From Candidatus Latescibacterota bacterium (lineage in GTDB: Bacteria; Latescibacterota; UBA2968; UBA8231), in the NCBI GenBank assembly GCA_965215195.1, contig CBDCDC010000002.1, positions 2,784,001-2,848,000 of the forward strand: a DNA stretch of 64,000 nt. Direction: 5' to 3'. The notes beneath the pieces are model-generated. The model did no database searches. It had not been told where the DNA came from and worked only from the letters and a program-made list of their open reading frames with translations. Of this stretch, positions 1 through 26,304 are shown piece after piece. The position numbers and the translations under genes are program-made. Numbering within the stretch: the first letter of the stretch is position 1; every line of letters begins with the position of its first letter.

Positions 1-1
1 A

Positions 2-586
2 GACCAGCTAAACATTTTGCGGATCGACAAATTCGACGCGCTCTTCCTCCACGACCCGCACGAGATAGAGCCGACCCTCGAAGCGGGTGGTGCGCTCGAA
101 GGGCTGGAACGGGTGCGCCAGCAGGGTGCCGTTGACTTCATCGGCTATGGCATGAGGCCCCACGACTTTCACCGCGCGCACATTGCTTCGGGCCGCACCG
201 ACGCCATGCTGTGCTTCAGCGACTACAACTTGCTCCGGCAGAGCGCAGCCGACGCGATCCTGCCCGCGGCTGTGGCCGCCGACCTCGGAGTACTCAACGG
301 CTGGTCGATCATGCGCGGCTGGCTGACGGGTGTGCCGGTGGAGTGCTTTATACCGCGCGACAAGTGGGGCGAGGACCAGCAGCGGGCCGAGGCCATGCGC
401 TTGTGGTGCGGCGAGCAGGGCATCGACATGCTGGAGCTGACGCTGCAATTTTGCCTGCGCGAGGAACGAATCCACGGCAACCCAATCGGCTCGCTGAACA
501 TTGAGCAGCTAGAGCGGAACGTCGCGGCCGCCATGGCCACTGTCGCGGACGAAACCATGGCCGCATTCAGGGCCGCGGCACTTTGA
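2..586 (+). CDS. Aldo/keto reductase (5' truncated by window edge)
   Basis: Frame open from base 2; AKR-like motifs DALFLHDP, GAVDFIGYG, YNLLRQ, GSLNIEQLERNV. Confidence 0.8.
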   Translation, partial: DQLNILRIDKFDALFLHDPHEIEPTLEAGGALEGLERVRQQGAVDFIGYGMRPHDFHRAHIASGRTDAMLCFSDYNLLRQSAADAILPAAVAADLGVLNGWSIMRGWLTGVPVECFIPRDKWGEDQQRAEAMRLWCGEQGIDMLELTLQFCLREERIHGNPIGSLNIEQLERNVAAAMATVADETMAAFRAAAL

Positions 587-604
587 ACGGGAGAAACCAC
601 GCGC

Positions 605-1375
605 ATGGGCGCTGCTGAAGCGTACTACGCACAGACGATGGAACTGTTGCAACGTCTGCGCGACACGCAAATGGACTCTATAGACCGAGCCGCCGAAATC
701 TGCACGGAGAGCATTGCCAACGGCGGGCTGGTCTTTCTCTTTGGGGCCGGGCACTCGCGGATGATGTGCGAGGAAATGACGCCGCGCCAAGGGTGTTTCG
801 TGGGCTTCTTTGCGTTGGTCGAGCTCGCGGTATCGACGCATGCGTCGATCGTCGGCACCAACGGGCTGCGCGGGCCACTCTTTTTGGAGAAGTGCGAAGG
901 CTACGCCGAGGAGATTCTCCAAGGGTTCGATTTCGGGCCGCACGACGCCTTTATCTTGATCTCGACGAGCGGCATTCGGCCCCTGATCGTGGAGATGGCC
1001 ATGGGCGCTAGGGCGCGGGGCTTGCCCGTAATCGCCATGCTGTCGAAGCCGCACGGCGACCAGTCGCCGCCAGCGCACTCCTCGGGCAAGAAGCTAATGG
1101 AGCTGGCCGACGTCGTCCTCGACAATCAATGTCCGCCCGGGGACTGCGTACTCGAGCTAGAGGGCTTGGAGTGGCGGACCGGGCCGGTATCAACGGTGAC
1201 CGGCGCGATGATGATGAATATGCTGCGCTGCGAGGTGGCCGAGCGGTTGCTGGCGCGGGGGATAAAGCCGGAGCTATTGCCGAGCCATCAGTTTGTGGGC
1301 AATGCAAGTGCAGAAGAGCAGCTAGAGCGATTTTACGAGGGCTACCGCAAGAGCCTCAAGCATTTGTACATGTAG
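605..1375 (+). CDS. SIS-domain sugar isomerase-like protein
   Basis: VFLFGAGHS and ILISTSG motifs of SIS proteins. Confidence 0.85.
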   Translation: MGAAEAYYAQTMELLQRLRDTQMDSIDRAAEICTESIANGGLVFLFGAGHSRMMCEEMTPRQGCFVGFFALVELAVSTHASIVGTNGLRGPLFLEKCEGYAEEILQGFDFGPHDAFILISTSGIRPLIVEMAMGARARGLPVIAMLSKPHGDQSPPAHSSGKKLMELADVVLDNQCPPGDCVLELEGLEWRTGPVSTVTGAMMMNMLRCEVAERLLARGIKPELLPSHQFVGNASAEEQLERFYEGYRKSLKHLYM

Positions 1376-5284: not shown

Positions 5285-6418
5285 TCAGTTGACCCCCTGC
5301 ATGAGGCGTTGGGTGATGGAGCCTTCCTGGGTCAGGGCATAGACGATCACGTTGACCGCCATCTGATTGTAGCGCGGGTTGCTGCCCCAGCCTACGTTGT
5401 CGATGCCGACCATGCGGCCGCGGATGAAGTACCCATTGACGATGTCCCTCCAGTCAACTAGGCCCCCAGTACCGCCTTTCAAAGCGAAAAAGGCATTGAA
5501 AATGGGATGATCCAAGGGCAGGCGTTCTCTCCAGAAATCATACCCATCTACTAAGCCGCCGTACTTTACCAAGGCTTCGCGATGGTAACCTCCCATAACA
5601 AAGCCCCCGGACAGCATATAGCGGGCATAGTTTTCCATTTCGCTCTCGTTGAGGGATCCTTGGGGGATGAGAATGGGCAGTTCGAGTAGGCGTCTGTCGT
5701 CGTAAGTAATAGTGCCGATAAACTCGGCTGCGAGTCCGGTGTACTCGTTAATAACGTCGCACAGGGCCTCAATTGAGCGCAGATTCAAATTGCTGTAGCC
5801 CTGCAGTTGATCGGTAACGGCGCGGGCCGAAAGCACATGGGCTATTTTGATGAAGCCTTTGACCGCTTGGGGATCGCCGGGGTTTTGGATGACCATGGCC
5901 CGGTAGCGGCCGGTATCCATGCTGTTGACATCGAGCATCTCCAAGGCCATGTCGATTTTGTGCTCCGGCATCCGCGTGCTGGTCACCGAGGCGGAGACGA
6001 GCTTGGGCTCGAGCACGAGGCTGTTCGTGGTGCTAGCGGCAATCGGCTTGAACAAGCGAATGCCCGAGTTGCCGACGTGGCTGGAAATCAACGAGCGGAC
6101 GTTGAAGTTGGTCGTGGCCTGCACTTGATCGAGGCGGGCGGCGGCCAAGTGGACTTGGCGGCGGGCTAGCTGGCGCTTGGGCTTGGGGATTTTGCGCAGT
6201 TCTAAGGGCTTGGTCAGGCGGGGTTCGCGCTTGATGAATTTGGTGCTGAGAGGCCGAGGGGCTTTGGTCTCTACTTGCTGGAAGGGGTTGAGGGCGACGA
6301 AGACCAACGCGAGGCCAACGGCCAGCGCCAAGGACAGGAGTAACCCTCGGCGTTGGCGAGCGACCAACTCGGCGAGCTCAAAACCGGAAGCGGGAGAATT
6401 AAAGCGGGAAGAACTCAT
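5285..6418 (-). CDS. Membrane-anchored DUF4159-like protein
   Basis: N-terminal TM helix; C-terminal ARYMLSGGF, LPLDHPIFNAFF, MAVNVIVYALT; AGGAGG RBS before ATG 6418. Confidence 0.65.
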   Translation of the reverse strand: MSSSRFNSPASGFELAELVARQRRGLLLSLALAVGLALVFVALNPFQQVETKAPRPLSTKFIKREPRLTKPLELRKIPKPKRQLARRQVHLAAARLDQVQATTNFNVRSLISSHVGNSGIRLFKPIAASTTNSLVLEPKLVSASVTSTRMPEHKIDMALEMLDVNSMDTGRYRAMVIQNPGDPQAVKGFIKIAHVLSARAVTDQLQGYSNLNLRSIEALCDVINEYTGLAAEFIGTITYDDRRLLELPILIPQGSLNESEMENYARYMLSGGFVMGGYHREALVKYGGLVDGYDFWRERLPLDHPIFNAFFALKGGTGGLVDWRDIVNGYFIRGRMVGIDNVGWGSNPRYNQMAVNVIVYALTQEGSITQRLMQGVN

Positions 6419-16693: not shown

Positions 16694-18247
16694 ATGCGCT
16701 TCTTCAATACCGCCGGTCCCATCAAGCCCGCCCGCCACTACTGCATCCCGCCGCTGGAACGCTTGGACCTGAACGAGGTGCTCGCCCTCATCCGAGACGA
16801 GAAGTACTTCGTTCTGCACGCCCCCCGGCAGACGGGCAAGACCTCCGGCCTGCTGGCCCTGCGCGACCTGCTCAACGCCGAGGGTGCCTACCGCTGCGTG
16901 TACGTCAATGTCGAGGGCGGGCAAGCCCTGCGCGAAGAGGTGGAACCGGCGATGCGGGTCATTCTGGGCGAGTTTGCGTCCCGGGCGCGTTCTATGGGCG
17001 ACGAGTTCTTGCCCAAGGTCTGGTCCAACATTCTCGCCGAGTACGGGCCGGGTGCTTTGGGCGAGGCGTTGACGCGCTGGGCGGAGGCCGACCCTAAACC
17101 GCTGGTTCTGCTCATTGACGAGATCGACGCACTCGTCGGCGACACGCTGCTGTCGGTGCTGCGGCAGTTGCGGGCTGGCTATGACCGCCGGCCGGAGGGC
17201 TTTCCGCAGAGTGTGATCCTCTGCGGGGTGCGCGACGTGCATTCCAAGTCGGCCAACGCCGTCATCTTGGGCGGTAGCGCGTTCAACATCAAGTCGCGCT
17301 CCCTGCGTTTGGACGACTTCTCGCCGGACGAGGTGCATGCCCTGCTCGCCCAGCACACCGAAGAGACCGGGCAGGCGTTCACGCCCGAAGCACTAAAAAC
17401 GATTTGGAGTCAGACCCAAGGGCAGCCGTGGCTGGTCAACGCCTTGGCGGATCAAACTTGCTTCCGAGATGGGGCCGCGGCGCGGCGCGCCCCGGTCACC
17501 GCCGACGCCATCCTCGAAGCCCGCGAGCAACTCATCCTGCGCCGGGAGACGCACCTCGACCAGTTGACCGACAAACTCAAGGAAGACCGCGTCCGGCGCA
17601 TAGTTGAGCCGCTGTTGAGTGGCAGTGCGGAACGCCACTTCATTGACCGCGATTTGGAGTACGTGCGCGATCTCGGCCTCGTCGCCCAAGACCTGCCATA
17701 CCGCATTGCCAATCCCATCTACGCCGAGGTCATCCCCCGCGAGCTGACGTGGGTCGTTCAAGGGGAGTTTGAGCTGGAAACGGCTTGGTACGTCGAGGCC
17801 GACGGCCGCCTAAACGTCGGAAAGCTGATGGCGGCGTTCCAAGCGTTCTTCCGCGAGCATTCCGAGCACTGGGTAACGCGGTTCCAATACCAAGAGGCTG
17901 GCCCGCAGTTGCTGTTGCAGGCATTCTTGCAGCGCATCGTCAACACCGGAGGGCGCATTGAGCGGGAGTACGGTTTGGGTCGGATGCGTACCGACCTGCT
18001 GATCGTCTGGCCGCAGGGGGAGGAGACGCGCAAGATCGTGATTGAGTGCAAGGTGCTGCACAAGAGTTTGGAGCAGACCATCGCCGAGGGGTTGGAGCAG
18101 ACCGCTGGGTACATGGATCGGTGTGCGGCCGAGGCGGGTCATTTGGTGATATTCGACCGTCGGGCGGGTCGGCGTTGGGAGGACAAGGTGTTCCGGGATC
18201 GTCGGGCGTCGACCAGCGGGATTGAGATCGACCTTTGGGGGATGTGA
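16694..18247 (+). CDS. AAA ATPase with C-terminal PD-(D/E)XK nuclease-like domain
   Basis: MRFFNTAGP, APRQTGKT Walker A, LLIDEID Walker B, RTDL...IECK. Confidence 0.85.
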   Translation: MRFFNTAGPIKPARHYCIPPLERLDLNEVLALIRDEKYFVLHAPRQTGKTSGLLALRDLLNAEGAYRCVYVNVEGGQALREEVEPAMRVILGEFASRARSMGDEFLPKVWSNILAEYGPGALGEALTRWAEADPKPLVLLIDEIDALVGDTLLSVLRQLRAGYDRRPEGFPQSVILCGVRDVHSKSANAVILGGSAFNIKSRSLRLDDFSPDEVHALLAQHTEETGQAFTPEALKTIWSQTQGQPWLVNALADQTCFRDGAAARRAPVTADAILEAREQLILRRETHLDQLTDKLKEDRVRRIVEPLLSGSAERHFIDRDLEYVRDLGLVAQDLPYRIANPIYAEVIPRELTWVVQGEFELETAWYVEADGRLNVGKLMAAFQAFFREHSEHWVTRFQYQEAGPQLLLQAFLQRIVNTGGRIEREYGLGRMRTDLLIVWPQGEETRKIVIECKVLHKSLEQTIAEGLEQTAGYMDRCAAEAGHLVIFDRRAGRRWEDKVFRDRRASTSGIEIDLWGM

Positions 18248-22496: not shown

Positions 22497-25400
22497 CTAA
22501 CCCACCGGCAGTCCGACAAAGAGCCGGCTGGACACGCTGCTCAGCGGCTCAACTTCGCCGCGCTCGGCCGCCCTAGCAAAGACTACGCCCGGCTGCGCGG
22601 CCCGAGCGGCCCGGCCCAAGACGTGATAATCGGCCCGGCCGGGCTGTTGGGCCGCTTCCCGCGCCTCGCTCCAGCCCTCGTTGGTGGCGGCCAGACCCCA
22701 CAAGGCACGCGGTGCCCGCACCTTGGCCTCCTCCACCGACAGGCCATCGCGCCAACAACCGCGCTGGGCGAACAAACTACCATCTTCCCGACAGATCAGC
22801 CCACCACCCACGTATTGGATCACCTGCTGTTGGTTGCCTCGCGCCCCCGATAGCGTCAACAGGGCTAGGGGCCCCAAGTCGTTGTCGGCGAAATCGGCCT
22901 GCTGGTAGAAAGCCGCCACTAACTCGTCGCTGTACATTTGCCACTCGTCCCCATGGACCTCTTTGGGTTGCTCTGGCCACTCCTTGCCCGAACCGAGGAA
23001 GGGGTTGAAGGAGGCCCCTGACTGCTTGCAGACCTCAAAGCCGCGCCGCGTCAGCCGGTCGAGTACATCCAGCGCTCGCTCCAAACCCTCGCGCTGCAGC
23101 ACCTGAGCGAGCAAGCGATTGAGATCGCGCTTGGTGAACAGCCGGCTGCCATCCACCGCCATTCCGGTCAGCCCCTCCACTTCGGCACGGCCTTCCTCCG
23201 TGCGACACAGCCGCGCCAAGCCCCATGTCATGCCGTGATAGTTGTCGGCCACGTAACGCCAGACATCCGCATCGCGCTGGATGTGTCCGGCCACCGACAG
23301 CGCGGTCTCGGCTTCGGCCTGGGCTTCCTCGGTGAGGGGCAAAAACACCTCGATGGAGTCGCCGTCGAAATCTAGCTCCATTAGTCGGCAAACGCGCGGA
23401 TGGACGCGCACTGCGGCCCCGGCCAAGCGCTGCGGGCGAAAGGCCACCACTGCGGTGGACATTGGGCCTTCGTCAACCAGCATCCGCTGGGCGCTGTACA
23501 GCAGCACCCACGAGCGCGCCATGATCGCGTCCAGAGCCTCAGTCGCCCGGGCCGAGCACCGCACCACTTCGTCGGCGCGACCTATCTCCCGCTCCACCTG
23601 AGGCCCGAACAAAGCCCAAGCCATTTCTTCGGGCAGGCCCACTTGGTCGAGATTCAGCTCAAATCCCGAGACGAGCGCGGCCCGGCCGCTAAACAGCGGT
23701 CTGGCCCGGAAGTGAAGGTGGTCCGGGCGCAACAACGCGGCGAAAAAATCCGCCACCCGCTGGGCCACTCGGGCCATTGCCGGTCCGACTAGGGGCTCCG
23801 GGGCCTCGCTGTCAACGACGCGCTGCAAGCGCGTATTGGCTTCGACCAAATCCTCGAAGCAGCCTCGGATTGGGTCGAACTCGGTTTCCGCGGGCAAAGC
23901 GACGGGAGCGCCCACCGTCCCCACTTGGCGTCCCGGAGCCCACGGGTGCGGCACGGGCTGGGCTAGGGTCAGCCCCTCGGGCTCGGCAAAGGAGAAGCGC
24001 AACGTTGCACTCGCTAACTCGGCTCGTATCCCGGCCATACCCAACAACTGCTGTAACAAGGCAAAGCGCGGGGATGGTGGGGGAGACGGGGATATTGGGC
24101 CAGAGGTCAAGTGCTGGCCCAGCGCATGGGCGTCGGCCCGCTCGGCCGCGGCCGTGTTGAACAAAGCGTGGATATTGGCTACGGCCCCGGCCTCGCACAA
24201 CGCTCCGTAGGCCATCATGTCGAGCTCTGGTCCGCCGACTCCTGCGACCGCAGTTTCCAAGCGCTCGGCCGCGGTGTGGGTGCGGCCCCAGTACACCCAA
24301 CCCACAGTGCTGCGATAGGGCAGCTTTGCGCCTTGGAGGGTCAGTTGCTCCATGCCGTCTCGGGGCAGTCCCGCCGCCGCCAGACGCGCTTTTAACGTCT
24401 CTTCGCTGGGTGCTCGAAAAGGCGGCACCACGGCCGGAGTCCCTTCGGCTTGGGCGAGGCGGCCCATGACTGCCTCGCGCTGTTGGCCGAAATTGAGCCG
24501 CGAGATCATACTGGTAGGACTGAAAATGAGTTCTAGCGGTGCCCCATCGGGCAACTGCGGCATATCGGCGTCGGGCAGGATGCGCGTCACCACCCCTTTG
24601 GCGCCGTGGCGGTTGCTCATGCGGTCGCCCACTCCCACTGCGGCGGGAAAATCCATCCGCGCCGCGGCCGATTCGCTGATGACCAAGCCATCCTCAAACG
24701 TGTCTCCGTCCCACATGATGAAGGCGGTCAGCAGATTGTAGCCACCCCAAAAGTCGGGGGCTTCGGGCTCGTACCCGGTCTGTACTAGGGCTGGCTCGGG
24801 TTTGTTGCCCTTGGAGGCCAAGCGCTGATCGTACTGCTGGCGGAACCAGCCCGTGGAGTGGACCGGTGCCCCTGTAGCGGCCGCGCTCGTCCACTGGCGC
24901 ATCATATTGACGCCCATCAGGGCGCGATTGGTATCGTCGTGTTCGAGGAAGGGGACCATGGAGGCCGAAAAACCCAAAATGCTGTCGGGCGCTGGGTCGA
25001 TCCGTTCGAGCTTGCCGTCGCGGATGCGGGCCCCGCGGGCGACTTCGAGTACGCGGCCGATATTGGGTCCCTCGGGGGTGCAGTAGGGGCATACTAGGCC
25101 GTATTGGCTGTAGGGGAAAACGTCTTGGCTGTCAAAAGACGCGACGACCAGCCGCCGCAGATGGGTATAGCGGTCGAGCCAGTTGGTCGCCTGTAGGTAC
25201 TGCGAGGTTTCCTCCAAGTGGAAGTCGCGCATCCAAGCGTCTAGCGGCAGCCAGTTGTGCACCAAGTCGCCGTCCCAAGCCAACTGCTCGGGGGCCGCCT
25301 CCAACCTCTGGTCAATAAAATCGCAGAGCTGCTCGCCCACGCACAGAATTCGCGCTTGCTCGAGCTCGCGCCGGTCGGGATAGGGGACCACGATCCGGTA

Positions 25401-25637
25401 GTTGCCCTCAATGCGGAAAAGGCCATCGCGGTCGGGCCGCGGCAGGTCGCGGTACTCAACCTCGACCGAGGCGTCGCCGAGTCCCAAGCTCAGTTTAATG
25501 GAAAAAGTATAAGGGCCCTGTTGTTCGACTTGATAGTCGGCCAGCGGCAGGCGCTTACCCAAGAGCCGGGGCAGTCGCTGGTGGACGAAAAGGTCAAAGG
25601 ACTCCCTGTGCCAAGGTACGTCGAGATTCAATGTCAT
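22497..25637 (-). CDS. Miniaturised single-chain RNA polymerase beta-beta' fusion-like protein (1046 aa)
   Basis: Collinear RpoB motifs (SQYLQATNWLDRYTHLRR, YGLVCPYCTPEGPNIG, PFLEHDDTNRALMGVNMMRQ, FEDG, GDRMSNRHGAKG, SRLNFGQ) then RpoC motifs (SGRAAL..GLPEEMA, VHPRVC..DFDGD..VFLPLTEEAQAEA, SGARGN). Confidence 0.93.
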   Translation of the reverse strand: MTLNLDVPWHRESFDLFVHQRLPRLLGKRLPLADYQVEQQGPYTFSIKLSLGLGDASVEVEYRDLPRPDRDGLFRIEGNYRIVVPYPDRRELEQARILCVGEQLCDFIDQRLEAAPEQLAWDGDLVHNWLPLDAWMRDFHLEETSQYLQATNWLDRYTHLRRLVVASFDSQDVFPYSQYGLVCPYCTPEGPNIGRVLEVARGARIRDGKLERIDPAPDSILGFSASMVPFLEHDDTNRALMGVNMMRQWTSAAATGAPVHSTGWFRQQYDQRLASKGNKPEPALVQTGYEPEAPDFWGGYNLLTAFIMWDGDTFEDGLVISESAAARMDFPAAVGVGDRMSNRHGAKGVVTRILPDADMPQLPDGAPLELIFSPTSMISRLNFGQQREAVMGRLAQAEGTPAVVPPFRAPSEETLKARLAAAGLPRDGMEQLTLQGAKLPYRSTVGWVYWGRTHTAAERLETAVAGVGGPELDMMAYGALCEAGAVANIHALFNTAAAERADAHALGQHLTSGPISPSPPPSPRFALLQQLLGMAGIRAELASATLRFSFAEPEGLTLAQPVPHPWAPGRQVGTVGAPVALPAETEFDPIRGCFEDLVEANTRLQRVVDSEAPEPLVGPAMARVAQRVADFFAALLRPDHLHFRARPLFSGRAALVSGFELNLDQVGLPEEMAWALFGPQVEREIGRADEVVRCSARATEALDAIMARSWVLLYSAQRMLVDEGPMSTAVVAFRPQRLAGAAVRVHPRVCRLMELDFDGDSIEVFLPLTEEAQAEAETALSVAGHIQRDADVWRYVADNYHGMTWGLARLCRTEEGRAEVEGLTGMAVDGSRLFTKRDLNRLLAQVLQREGLERALDVLDRLTRRGFEVCKQSGASFNPFLGSGKEWPEQPKEVHGDEWQMYSDELVAAFYQQADFADNDLGPLALLTLSGARGNQQQVIQYVGGGLICREDGSLFAQRGCWRDGLSVEEAKVRAPRALWGLAATNEGWSEAREAAQQPGRADYHVLGRAARAAQPGVVFARAAERGEVEPLSSVSSRLFVGLPVG

Positions 25638-26258
25638 TCGCGTTCCTCCGGGTTATTAATAGCCTGCCAGGCTCGTGCGATCTGGCGGCGGCCGTGGTGC
25701 AGACGCGACTTTACAGTGCCTTCGGGAATGCCCAGTCGCTCGGCCGCGTCCCGCACTTCGACTTGGGCGTCGTAGATCAGACGGAAAACTTCGCGCTTGT
25801 CCTCGGACAACTCTTGTACTTGTCGCCGCAGCCAGCGCTGCTGGTCAGCCCATTCCACTTGGGCGTCGGGGTGCTCAGACGCAGCCTCAATCATCCACTC
25901 GGGCACTTGCTGCAATCATCCACTCGGGCACTTGCTGCGCCTCCTGCTGCACGGTTTCAGACAGCATTTCCAGCCGCTGCTCCCGCCGCCGCCGCACGGT
26001 GCGCAGGTGCGTCAGGGAAAGATGAGTGGCAATGCGGAACAGCCAGTTAGCCGCAGAGCCTCGACCGCTCCATTGGCCGGCCCGGTTCCACACTCGCAAG
26101 AAAACCTCCTGCACTACATCGTTAGCACTCGCATCGTCGCGGACGATGCAGCGCACGCGGTGGTGGACCTGCGCCCGATAGCGCTCAAAGAACTGCTCGA
26201 ATGCGCGTGCATCGCGTTCTTTTATTCGCGCTATGAGTTGTGGGTCCGGTATCTGCAT
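25634..26258 (-). pseudogene. ECF sigma-70 factor, frameshifted by a 25-bp tandem duplication (199 aa if one copy is removed)
   Basis: Region 2 (DVVQEVFLRVW...WLFRIA) in ORF 25887-26258; region 4 (AAERLGIPEGTVKSRLHHGR) in ORF 25634-25915; ATGA overlap with the RNAP-like gene. Confidence 0.9.
25888..25937. repeat. Exact 25-bp tandem duplication
   Basis: CAATCATCCACTCGGGCACTTGCTG at 25888-25912 and 25913-25937. Confidence 0.97.
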
Positions 26259-26277: not shown

Positions 26278-26304
26278 AGACGCCGCCCGGAAGGCATAGG
26301 TTCA
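26278..26304 (-). promoter_or_regulatory. Candidate ECF-type (autoregulatory) promoter
   Basis: TGAACC-N16-CGTCT on the minus strand, 19 nt upstream of the sigma ATG. Confidence 0.6.

Follow-up and report, generated by a model that had tools for sequence, protein, structure and literature searches.

A widespread two-gene module that pairs an ECF sigma factor with a single-chain beta-beta' RNA polymerase 'mini-core', one clade of which is eroding its active site

A 64,000-nucleotide stretch of the genome of a Candidatus Latescibacterota bacterium (GenBank assembly GCA_965215195.1, contig CBDCDC010000002.1, positions 2,784,001 to 2,848,000; called the window throughout) encodes an RNA polymerase-like protein in which the catalytic aspartates are kept but the residues that select nucleoside triphosphates (NTPs) are changed, and this raises the question what such a protein is maintained for. 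The two motifs concerned had been pointed out in a preliminary description made from the sequence of the window, which did not take in the linked gene for a sigma factor of the extracytoplasmic function (ECF) type, nor the losses of Asp and Lys residues in sister lineages. We found that what had been flagged is the catalytic loop, of the beta' type, in a single-chain beta-beta' protein, here termed 'mini-core', in which an RpoB-like half is followed by an RpoC-like half and both halves are shortened. The ECF sigma factor and the mini-core constitute a widespread two-gene module, and one clade of mini-cores, to which the window protein belongs, is eroding its active site.

The flagged coordinates are covered by a sole long open reading frame (ORF) of 1046 codons (Table 1). 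Pfam recognises in its product, from the N- to the C-terminus, RNA_pol_Rpb2_3 (residues 146-205, E 4.2e-7), Rpb2_6 (335-452, E 5.4e-29) and Rpb1_2 (729-780, E 2.2e-11), and a profile of the family was aligned to E. coli beta' by hhalign with a probability of 99.9 (E 9.1e-33); on these scores, the likeness to RNA polymerase is homology and not due to chance. Since the curated NCBIfam cut-offs were not reached (157.2 bits against 801.15 for rpoB TIGR02013, 84.7 against 963.5 for rpoC TIGR02386 and 147.8 against 5372 for the fused rpoBC NF007172), the mini-core is not an equivalog of RpoB, RpoC or fused RpoBC. Its own genome has a separate, ordinary rpoB-rpoC pair at a distance of ~0.84 Mb, with 1803 and 1765 bits, and the mini-core gene is thus a paralogue. 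An AlphaFold2 model calculated with 72 family sequences as input was very confident (predicted local distance difference test, pLDDT, 95.1; predicted template modelling score, pTM, 0.93). Residues 1-461 of this model were superposed by VIA-align on Rpb2/beta chains (Z 25-26, root-mean-square deviation 2.4-2.8, 400-477 residues aligned) and residues 519-1046 on residues 4-1259 of M. tuberculosis beta' (Z 17.1, root-mean-square deviation 3.5, 491 residues), and Foldseek, with E-values down to 5e-21, confirmed the overall fold of the two large subunits. For QDE-1 a Z of only 9.8 was obtained, and the fold is thus nearer to that of the cellular subunits (Z 25 and 17).

In the mini-core, both double-psi barrels are retained, as are the clamp helices and bridge helix; it is devoid of the flap, the rudder, the trigger loop and most lobes. 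On the beta side, the motifs FED and GDRMSNRHGAKG are separated by 20 residues, compared to ~245 in E. coli beta: residues 299-322 correspond to beta 797-820 and residues 337-399 to beta 1063-1125, such that 14 residues replace ~240 residues of E. coli beta, in which we take the flap to lie. On the beta' side, the helical hairpin resembling the clamp helices (z = 3.1 in a local alignment to these helices, a value reached by 2 of 200 shuffles) is kept although neighbouring elements are deleted, among them, according to hhalign, the rudder segment that follows it. Directly after the bridge helix comes the C-terminal part of the clamp (residues 1000-1046), which maps to the C-terminal end of beta', and the chain ends 50 residues past residue 996; the hhalign alignment stops at beta' 789. 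As had been noted before, no trigger loop follows the bridge helix, be it in the translation, the AlphaFold2 model or the hhalign alignment, and this absence is a trait of the whole mini-core family. A remnant of the trigger loop in the tail was considered and rejected, as the best local match, to E. coli beta' 935-965 (the tip of the trigger loop), was reached by 12 of 200 shuffles and is not significant.

For the active site, the E. coli numbering was checked on the K-12 rpoB and rpoC translations. The motif DFDGD (residues 756-760, window 23358-23372, minus strand) lies inside the Pfam Rpb1_2 match, and BLASTP to E. coli beta' places D756, D758 and D760 on D460, D462 and D464, E754 on N458 and L755 on A459. 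The triad is kept in the window protein, in agreement with the preliminary description, and in all 49 sequences that are at least 70% identical to it, and all 49 also share E754, E813/D814, R1069, H1070 and K1073. YSAQRML proper (residues 714-720, window 23478-23498, minus strand) stands in place of NRAPTLH: hhalign pairs Y714-S715-A716-Q717-R718-M719-L720 with beta' N424-R425-A426-P427-T428-L429-H430, which is exactly the register that had been set by eye, and treats VDEGPM (721-726) as an insertion. Pairwise BLASTP and phmmer give an alternative register, with E723 at the R425 place and P725 in place of Q717. An Arg at the R425 place is found in neither register (S715 by profile, E723 pairwise), and the reported replacement of both R425 and N458 is borne out. 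The motifs FED, GDRMSNRHGAKG, SRLN (379-382) and ALWGLAAT (978-985) are likewise all present in the translation, with the acidic pair E315-D316 in the first of them. BLASTP to E. coli beta aligns R339 with K1065 and K347 with K1073; the change from GDK to GDR that had been read at the former position is true of the window protein but polymorphic in the close group, where Lys is found in 28 and Arg in 21 of the 49 sequences.

Beta D814, K1065 and K1073 presumably correspond to D837, K979 and K987 of Rpb2. In the text available from Ruprich-Robert and Thuriaux (2010, PMC2919709), these Rpb2 residues are the acidic and the two basic residues of the beta-type barrel, and the Arg equivalent to R425 is among eight residues common to all two-barrel RNA polymerases. 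Compared with these hallmarks of the two-barrel superfamily, the window protein has a beta'-type barrel with the DxDxD signature and a beta-type barrel in which the acidic pair is accompanied by two basic residues, the one at the K1065 place (R339) being a conservative exchange, and it lacks the Arg. According to the accessible portion of Makinen et al. (2021, PMC7862312), the 2'-OH of the NTP is contacted by three conserved residues, beta' R425, beta' N458 and the trigger-loop Q929, and R425 is the main determinant of selection against deoxynucleoside triphosphates (dNTPs). All three readers of the 2'-OH are gone from the window clade: the R425 place is Ser in the window protein, the N458 place is Glu and Q929 is absent. 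An altered or weak substrate selection can fairly be inferred from these losses, and to this extent the earlier expectation of an altered specificity stands. The lack of a trigger loop alone, however, does not imply slowness, given that YonO of the Bacillus prophage SPbeta has no detectable trigger-loop homology and synthesizes RNA as efficiently as a multisubunit enzyme, as stated in the part of the YonO report at hand (PMC5467207).

Relatives of the window protein are many and full-length (~1000-1070 amino acids). A word-index protein search returned 1624 proteins at E <= 0.001 among 8000 candidates, and an exhaustive search returned 325 cluster representatives at E <= 1e-30. Among the matches listed (120), nine have a readable name, in all cases 'hypothetical protein', and belong to Latescibacteria, Gemmatimonadota, Hydrogenedentes, Chloroflexi and Armatimonadetes; genome contigs extend the family to Poribacteria, Anaerolineae, Chloroflexia and Capsulimonas. 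The mini-core family is widespread and nameless in the databases searched. Within the phylum of the window its distribution is patchy. Of 101 genomes searched, 29 have a member; the figures are 2 of 6 for the other genomes of the window's genus and 20 of 20 for another genus. A phage origin was rejected: viral contigs scanned with the family alignment yielded only distant relatives of RNA polymerase (best E 1e-19, 23% identity) and no family member, and the PHROG matches were to unnamed and generic RNA polymerase beta families. Assignment to a defence system was rejected as well, with 0 PADLOC families (2023 library) at E <= 1. The ESM Atlas holds other clusters with fused Rpb2_6 and Rpb1_2 domains (representatives of 1221-1787 amino acids, mostly labelled hypothetical), which suggests that there are further unnamed fused polymerase paralogues.

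The distribution of the substitutions was assessed on 174 full-length members, which were de-duplicated at 80% to 114 representatives, 11 of them in the window clade (sequences down to ~51% identity to the window protein) and 103 outside it. Outside the clade, 100 representatives have the DxDxD triad and 94 have an Arg at the R425 place; the residue at the N458 place is Asn in 63, Asp in 29 and Glu in 5, and Lys is found at K1065 in 98 and at K1073 in 99. In the consensus of the family, the two motifs are xRAP and NADFDGDQ. Inside the clade, 10 of the 11 representatives have no Arg at the R425 place, and the signature is WV(L/V)L(Y/H)(S/G/N)(A/G), 6-12 inserted residues and ME(L/I/V/Q/R) ahead of the triad. 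Positions that are changed in the clade but conserved outside it include the R425, A459 and beta' R352 places. In a FastTree tree of 37 of the 174 sequences, the clade forms one group nested in the family. Judged from these alignments, the change at R425 and N458 is a clade-wide derived state and not a family-wide one. The preliminary description had left open a change throughout the family, and would have taken orthologues with intact motifs as a sign of strain-specific drift: the distant orthologues do keep NADFDGD and xRAP, which contradicts the former, but the change is shared by all 49 close sequences, and strain drift does not follow. The invariance of DFDGD, also raised there, holds for the close sequences and for nearly all representatives outside the clade but breaks down inside it, where the triad is intact in 5 of 11 representatives and broken in the other 6, which belong to deeper branches (DDN in four, SDD in one, YDD in one). 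K1073 is kept in 5 of the 11, compared to 99 of the 103 outside. It is this apparent erosion of the triad and of K1073 that marks the window clade among the sampled representatives, and we consider it no less likely that the clade has lost catalytic constraint than that it has gained a new specificity. The FastTree tree, of which the branch supports were not read, shows the lineage with the first Asp lost as sister to the subclade of the window.

Departures from the catalytic signature were also seen elsewhere in the family. A Poribacteria-type clade of 8 of the 174 sequences (P0087, P0092, P0093, P0095, P0098, P0111, P0114 and P0117) reads NANFDGD, with the first catalytic Asp changed to Asn and the R425-type Arg kept, and is, on the alignment, a second and independent departure. 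In the single representatives P0125 and P0192 the whole triad is gone, with GFSAQ and GFGGL replacing DFDGD.

The second gene of the module lies immediately upstream of the mini-core gene, and its stop codon overlaps the start codon of the latter (ATGA at 25634-25637). Of 36 related loci from several phyla, 33 have an ECF sigma gene upstream of the mini-core gene and on its strand, which is 33 of the 35 with upstream DNA. The exceptions are L034, which has no upstream DNA, and L012, in which no sigma gene is found in the 15 kb of the locus, within 6 kb on either side of an intact polymerase gene. In L018, a sigma remnant of 15 residues (5905-6001) is fused to a polymerase gene beginning at residue 94, the first 93 codons being gone. 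When 13 diverse loci were compared, the sigma and mini-core genes were the only ones common to all 13; no other conserved neighbour and no anti-sigma gene conserved beside the sigma gene was found among them, the next real cluster occurring in 5 of the 13, and clusters present in 10-12 of the loci were discarded as antisense shadow ORFs over the sigma and mini-core genes. The DNA-reading parts of the sigma are nearly invariant across phyla, and 17 of the 18 sequences inspected, again across phyla, have the promoter motif TGAAC-N15-GG(Y/A)GTC just upstream of the sigma gene, with no clear copy in the 250 nt searched in L027. Metatranscriptome contigs of run X21, which come from a relative (~90% alike, corresponding to window 25421-26233), span the sigma gene and extend into the polymerase gene by 215 nt, a hint at co-transcription that we do not count as proof of expression as DNA carry-over is possible.

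In the window itself, the sigma gene is split into an ORF with Sigma70_r2 and, in another frame, an ORF with the helix-turn-helix of region 4, which score 52.4 and 43.8 bits on TIGR02937 (cut-off 42.9). Orthologous sigma factors are encoded by one intact ORF of ~199 codons, with 96.4, 115.7 and 107.7 bits on the same profile for L001, L022 and L031. The split is due to a 25-nt tandem duplication (2 x 25). Contigs of the public runs X1 and X2 lack the extra copy, and a contig of X3 has it; all three runs are from one study, and this study may include the source sample. These contigs span the sigma gene and the first ~80 polymerase codons, with one or two base differences besides the 25 nt. The duplication is a real polymorphism, and the window strain is a natural sigma mutant with an intact polymerase gene. 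A few genes away, a protein of 517 amino acids with AAA_22 and AAA_35 domains is encoded (window 16694-18247, plus strand), which is not conserved beside the module in other loci.

Selection on the mini-core gene was estimated from 19 intact orthologues, namely that of the window and those of 18 of 20 close loci, with L017 and L018 left out as truncated. The ratio of nonsynonymous to synonymous substitution rates (dN/dS) over the 171 pairs had a median of 0.163 (range 0.126-0.206; median dN 0.048, median dS 0.29), and the full-length ORF was intact in all 19. The highest value among 60-residue windows, 0.30, was obtained for residues 661-720, which hold the replaced motif; residues 721-780 gave 0.18. 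The gene is maintained under purifying selection.

Table 1 Features of the mini-core locus, with positions counted from the first nucleotide of the window.
Feature	Residues	Window positions	Strand	Evidence or remark
Mini-core gene	1-1046	22497..25637	-	ORF, translation, Pfam, NCBIfam, AlphaFold2, VIA-align
beta1/protrusion-like domain	1-150			VIA-align of residues 5-150 to beta1 domain, Z 10-11
beta-type fork, double-psi barrel and C-terminal part	~150-545			
beta'-type clamp, double-psi barrel, funnel, bridge helix and C-terminal clamp part	546-1046			
Motifs FED (beta E813/D814 region) and GDRMSNRHGAKG	314-316 and 337-348	24594..24698	-	
Clamp-helix-like helical hairpin	585-609 / 614-635	23733..23885	-	Model secondary structure, hhalign to E. 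coli beta' 266-310
YSAQRML and clade-specific insertion VDEGPM	714-720 and 721-726	23460..23498	-	hhalign, family alignments
ELDFDGD	754-760	23358..23378	-	D756/D758/D760 = Mg-binding triad
Bridge helix	968-996	22650..22736	-	AlphaFold2 model, hhalign, VIA-align
ECF sigma factor gene		25634..26258	-	Split: region-2 ORF 26258-25887, region-4 ORF 25915-25634
25-nt tandem duplication, frameshifts sigma gene		25889..25938	-	Sequence; public-run contigs
ECF-type promoter TGAAC-N15-GGCGTC		26279..26304	-	~20 nt upstream of sigma start codon

Since the active site is canonical across the family, the ancestral mini-core was most likely a real nucleotide polymerase, and it would have worked with, or been controlled by, its sigma. 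The window clade has given up R425 and N458 as readers of the 2'-OH, besides the Q929 that the whole family lacks, and sister lineages within it have lost Mg-binding Asp residues and the beta-side Lys too, a loss that speaks for dispensable catalysis more than for a new specificity. Because Mg ligands and K1073 were lost repeatedly in sister lineages of a protein that is still conserved and tied to its sigma, we prefer for the clade, tentatively and short of an even chance, the reading that selection no longer maintains NTP-specific synthesis and that the protein is kept for a job resting mainly on binding, for which its sigma and/or nucleic acid would be the partner. The subclade of the window, possibly an intermediate, would still bind Mg, and we infer at most a slow nucleotidyl transfer with poor sugar selection.

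Several points weigh against this preference. The window subclade keeps the triad, E813/D814, R1069, H1070 and K1073 throughout, as an active enzyme would, and such an enzyme with a relaxed choice of sugar is possible; the 49 members of this subclade span only ~27% divergence. The representatives with a broken triad are few, and their losses may go back to two or three events. A compensating residue may exist, such as R718, the conservation of which is confined to sequences with an identity of 73% or more to the window protein. A length of 1046 amino acids is far more than a binder of sigma needs, the beta flap as the dock of sigma region 4 is absent, and the geometry of the sigma promoter is that of an ordinary ECF promoter, which fits use by the host core enzyme. 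Finally, the case for sigma binding is a weak one, made from gene linkage and a weak complex prediction.

In an alternative reading the sigma link is regulatory only: the ECF sigma together with the host core RNA polymerase would switch on the operon from the sigma's own promoter, and the mini-core would be a regulated effector that never touches sigma. In a canonical enzyme, sigma region 2 docks on the beta' clamp helices and region 4 on the beta flap at the RNA exit, and ECF promoters have a -35 and a -10 element at a typical spacing. The promoter TGAAC-N15-GGYGTC is conserved across phyla in just this layout, the mini-core has no flap, and the genome has a complete canonical rpoB-rpoC pair, all of which would be expected of a regulatory link. 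The same applies to the search for a regulon. In the 6.13-Mb genome, in which no fewer than 14 further complete ECF sigma genes are encoded, 6 matches to the strict promoter pattern were obtained compared to 10 expected by composition, with only the sigma's own site being convincing; a scan with a position weight matrix gave 28.5 bits for this site, which is in the training set, followed by 20.2 bits and a smooth tail in which no second target could be named, and both scans leave room for weaker or differently spaced sites. With no second convincing site in its own genome, the sigma thus seems to have this operon as its main target. Set against a purely regulatory link are the survival of the clamp-helix hairpin while the rudder, flap and trigger loop were trimmed, the translational coupling of the two genes together with their co-occurrence in nearly all loci with upstream DNA, and the absence of a conserved anti-sigma gene beside the sigma. 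Weak support for a contact also comes from a complex prediction with the intact cognate pair of L001 (mini-core residues 262-1051 and sigma, with our own alignments), which scored 0.36 (runs 0.33, 0.36 and 0.37) against 0.01 for the best control, a score that in itself is more often wrong than right unless the pairing is already likely and that could be prompted by solved sigma-beta' complexes. The runs shared at least 26% of contacts, and the partner pLDDT was at least 65. In the benchmark of this score, the mark was reached by 58 of 80 solved complexes and by 2 of 110 mismatched pairs, and at scores of 0.60 or below by only 7 of the 80 solved complexes and by both mismatches. Pfam at E <= 1 lists only the three RNA polymerase domains and no anti-sigma domain in the mini-core; sigma may nonetheless be bound through the clamp helices. 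On the modelling, binding of sigma by the mini-core is plausible, and we regard a link without any contact as somewhat unlikely.

The mini-cores of the clade could also be active polymerases, with a pocket remodelled for dNTPs or mixed substrates and acting as sigma-directed synthases of primers, short RNAs or DNA. In favour of this, all three known readers of the 2'-OH are missing, and the Mg triad and the residues E813/D814, R1069, H1070 and K1073 are found in every one of the close sequences; the changes are fixed across the clade with a conserved insertion next to them, unlike random decay; dN/dS over the catalytic loop is as low as 0.18; and YonO, as described in the available text (PMC5467207), demonstrates that a lack of trigger-loop homology need not keep a two-barrel enzyme from being efficient. 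However, the loss of a Mg-ligand Asp in 6 of 11 clade representatives and of K1073 in 6 of 11 would be intolerable for any polymerase, a Glu beside the triad adds negative charge near the triphosphate site, and dN/dS peaks over the very residues that hold the replaced motif. We thus consider a remodelled pocket to be rather unlikely for the clade. The conservation of the active site in the family as a whole speaks for a true polymerase there, which may be either a minimal sigma-dependent holoenzyme or an effector switched on by sigma via the host enzyme.

A bolder form of the former, in which the ECF sigma and the 1046-residue protein are a self-contained holoenzyme that starts at TGAAC-N15-GGYGTC and, in the window clade, makes DNA or mixed primers, seems to us distinctly improbable. 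If true, it would be the smallest sigma-dependent polymerase of the cellular type, and the window clade would perform sigma-directed, promoter-specific synthesis with deoxynucleotides. Strain-level drift in a decaying gene, a nascent pseudogene or a sequencing error, as might be suspected from the frameshifted sigma gene and from the absence of the module from 4 of the 6 further genomes searched in this genus, is hardly credible and was rejected in view of the identical residues in 49 of 49 sequences from many assemblies, the 19 of 19 intact full-length ORFs with a dN/dS of 0.16, the very confident model (pLDDT 95) and the agreement of the contigs of three runs, bar one or two bases, over the sigma gene and the first ~80 polymerase codons.

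Compared with known systems, the mini-core has its best matches in sequence and fold in canonical RpoB and RpoC, with which it shares both double-psi barrels, FED, GDx..RHGxKG, DFDGD, the fork, the clamp helices, the bridge helix and the C-terminal clamp part. It differs from E. coli beta and beta' in being one chain of 1046 amino acids instead of two of 1342 and 1407, without flap, rudder, trigger loop and lineage insertions. Full-length fusions of RpoB and RpoC, of the Helicobacter and Wolbachia type, are taken as the housekeeping enzyme. They too have beta followed by beta' in one polypeptide (NF007172, NF011417), but their profiles comprise ~2840-2890 positions, and the mini-core, an accessory paralogue, scores 148 bits against a cut-off of 5372. 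The linked ECF sigma recalls ECF sigma/anti-sigma operons, in which an ECF sigma gene behind its own promoter is co-transcribed, with overlapping codons, with one conserved partner; here, however, the partner has ~1000 amino acids, no anti-sigma domain and a polymerase active site, which most family members conserve. YonO shares with the mini-core a size of ~100 kDa, the single chain, the lack of trigger-loop homology and an Mg-binding Asp motif, but its homology to multisubunit enzymes is very distant and no sigma-type partner is named in the accessible text (PMC5467207), whereas the likeness of the mini-core to these enzymes is plain; this comparison is by description only. The 982-residue Orf6 of the yeast plasmid pGKL2 is, like the mini-core, a trimmed fusion of ~1000 amino acids, of Rpb2 and Rpb1, described on the basis of its sequence in the available part of its source (PMC2919709), and is set apart, again by description, by its eukaryotic descent, its plasmid location and a promoter recognition unrelated to sigma. 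A sigma-linked fused beta-beta' paralogue was not described in the papers searched, a search that left most subscription journals outside. The main text of a paper on the reclassification of ECF sigma factors, as far as available (PMC7826278), mentions no RpoB, RpoC or Rpb neighbours, and its supplementary neighbourhood tables may bear on this point; nothing relevant to a sigma-linked mini-core was found in the accessible portions of PMC8195603, PMC8131849 and PMC4996933.

The residues that discriminate between NTPs and dNTPs are called universally conserved in multisubunit RNA polymerases in the available text of Makinen et al. (PMC7862312). Thus, a natural lineage under selection in which the readers of the 2'-OH are replaced is a ready-made test of the rules of sugar selection. 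The combination of a stripped-down beta-beta' core with an ECF sigma in Latescibacterota, Poribacteria, Chloroflexota, Armatimonadota and others could show the minimum that is required for sigma-dependent transcription or, alternatively, represent a novel type of regulator of sigma, one that imitates the core enzyme. Both outcomes have a bearing on the evolution of RNA polymerase and on the design of compact orthogonal transcription parts.

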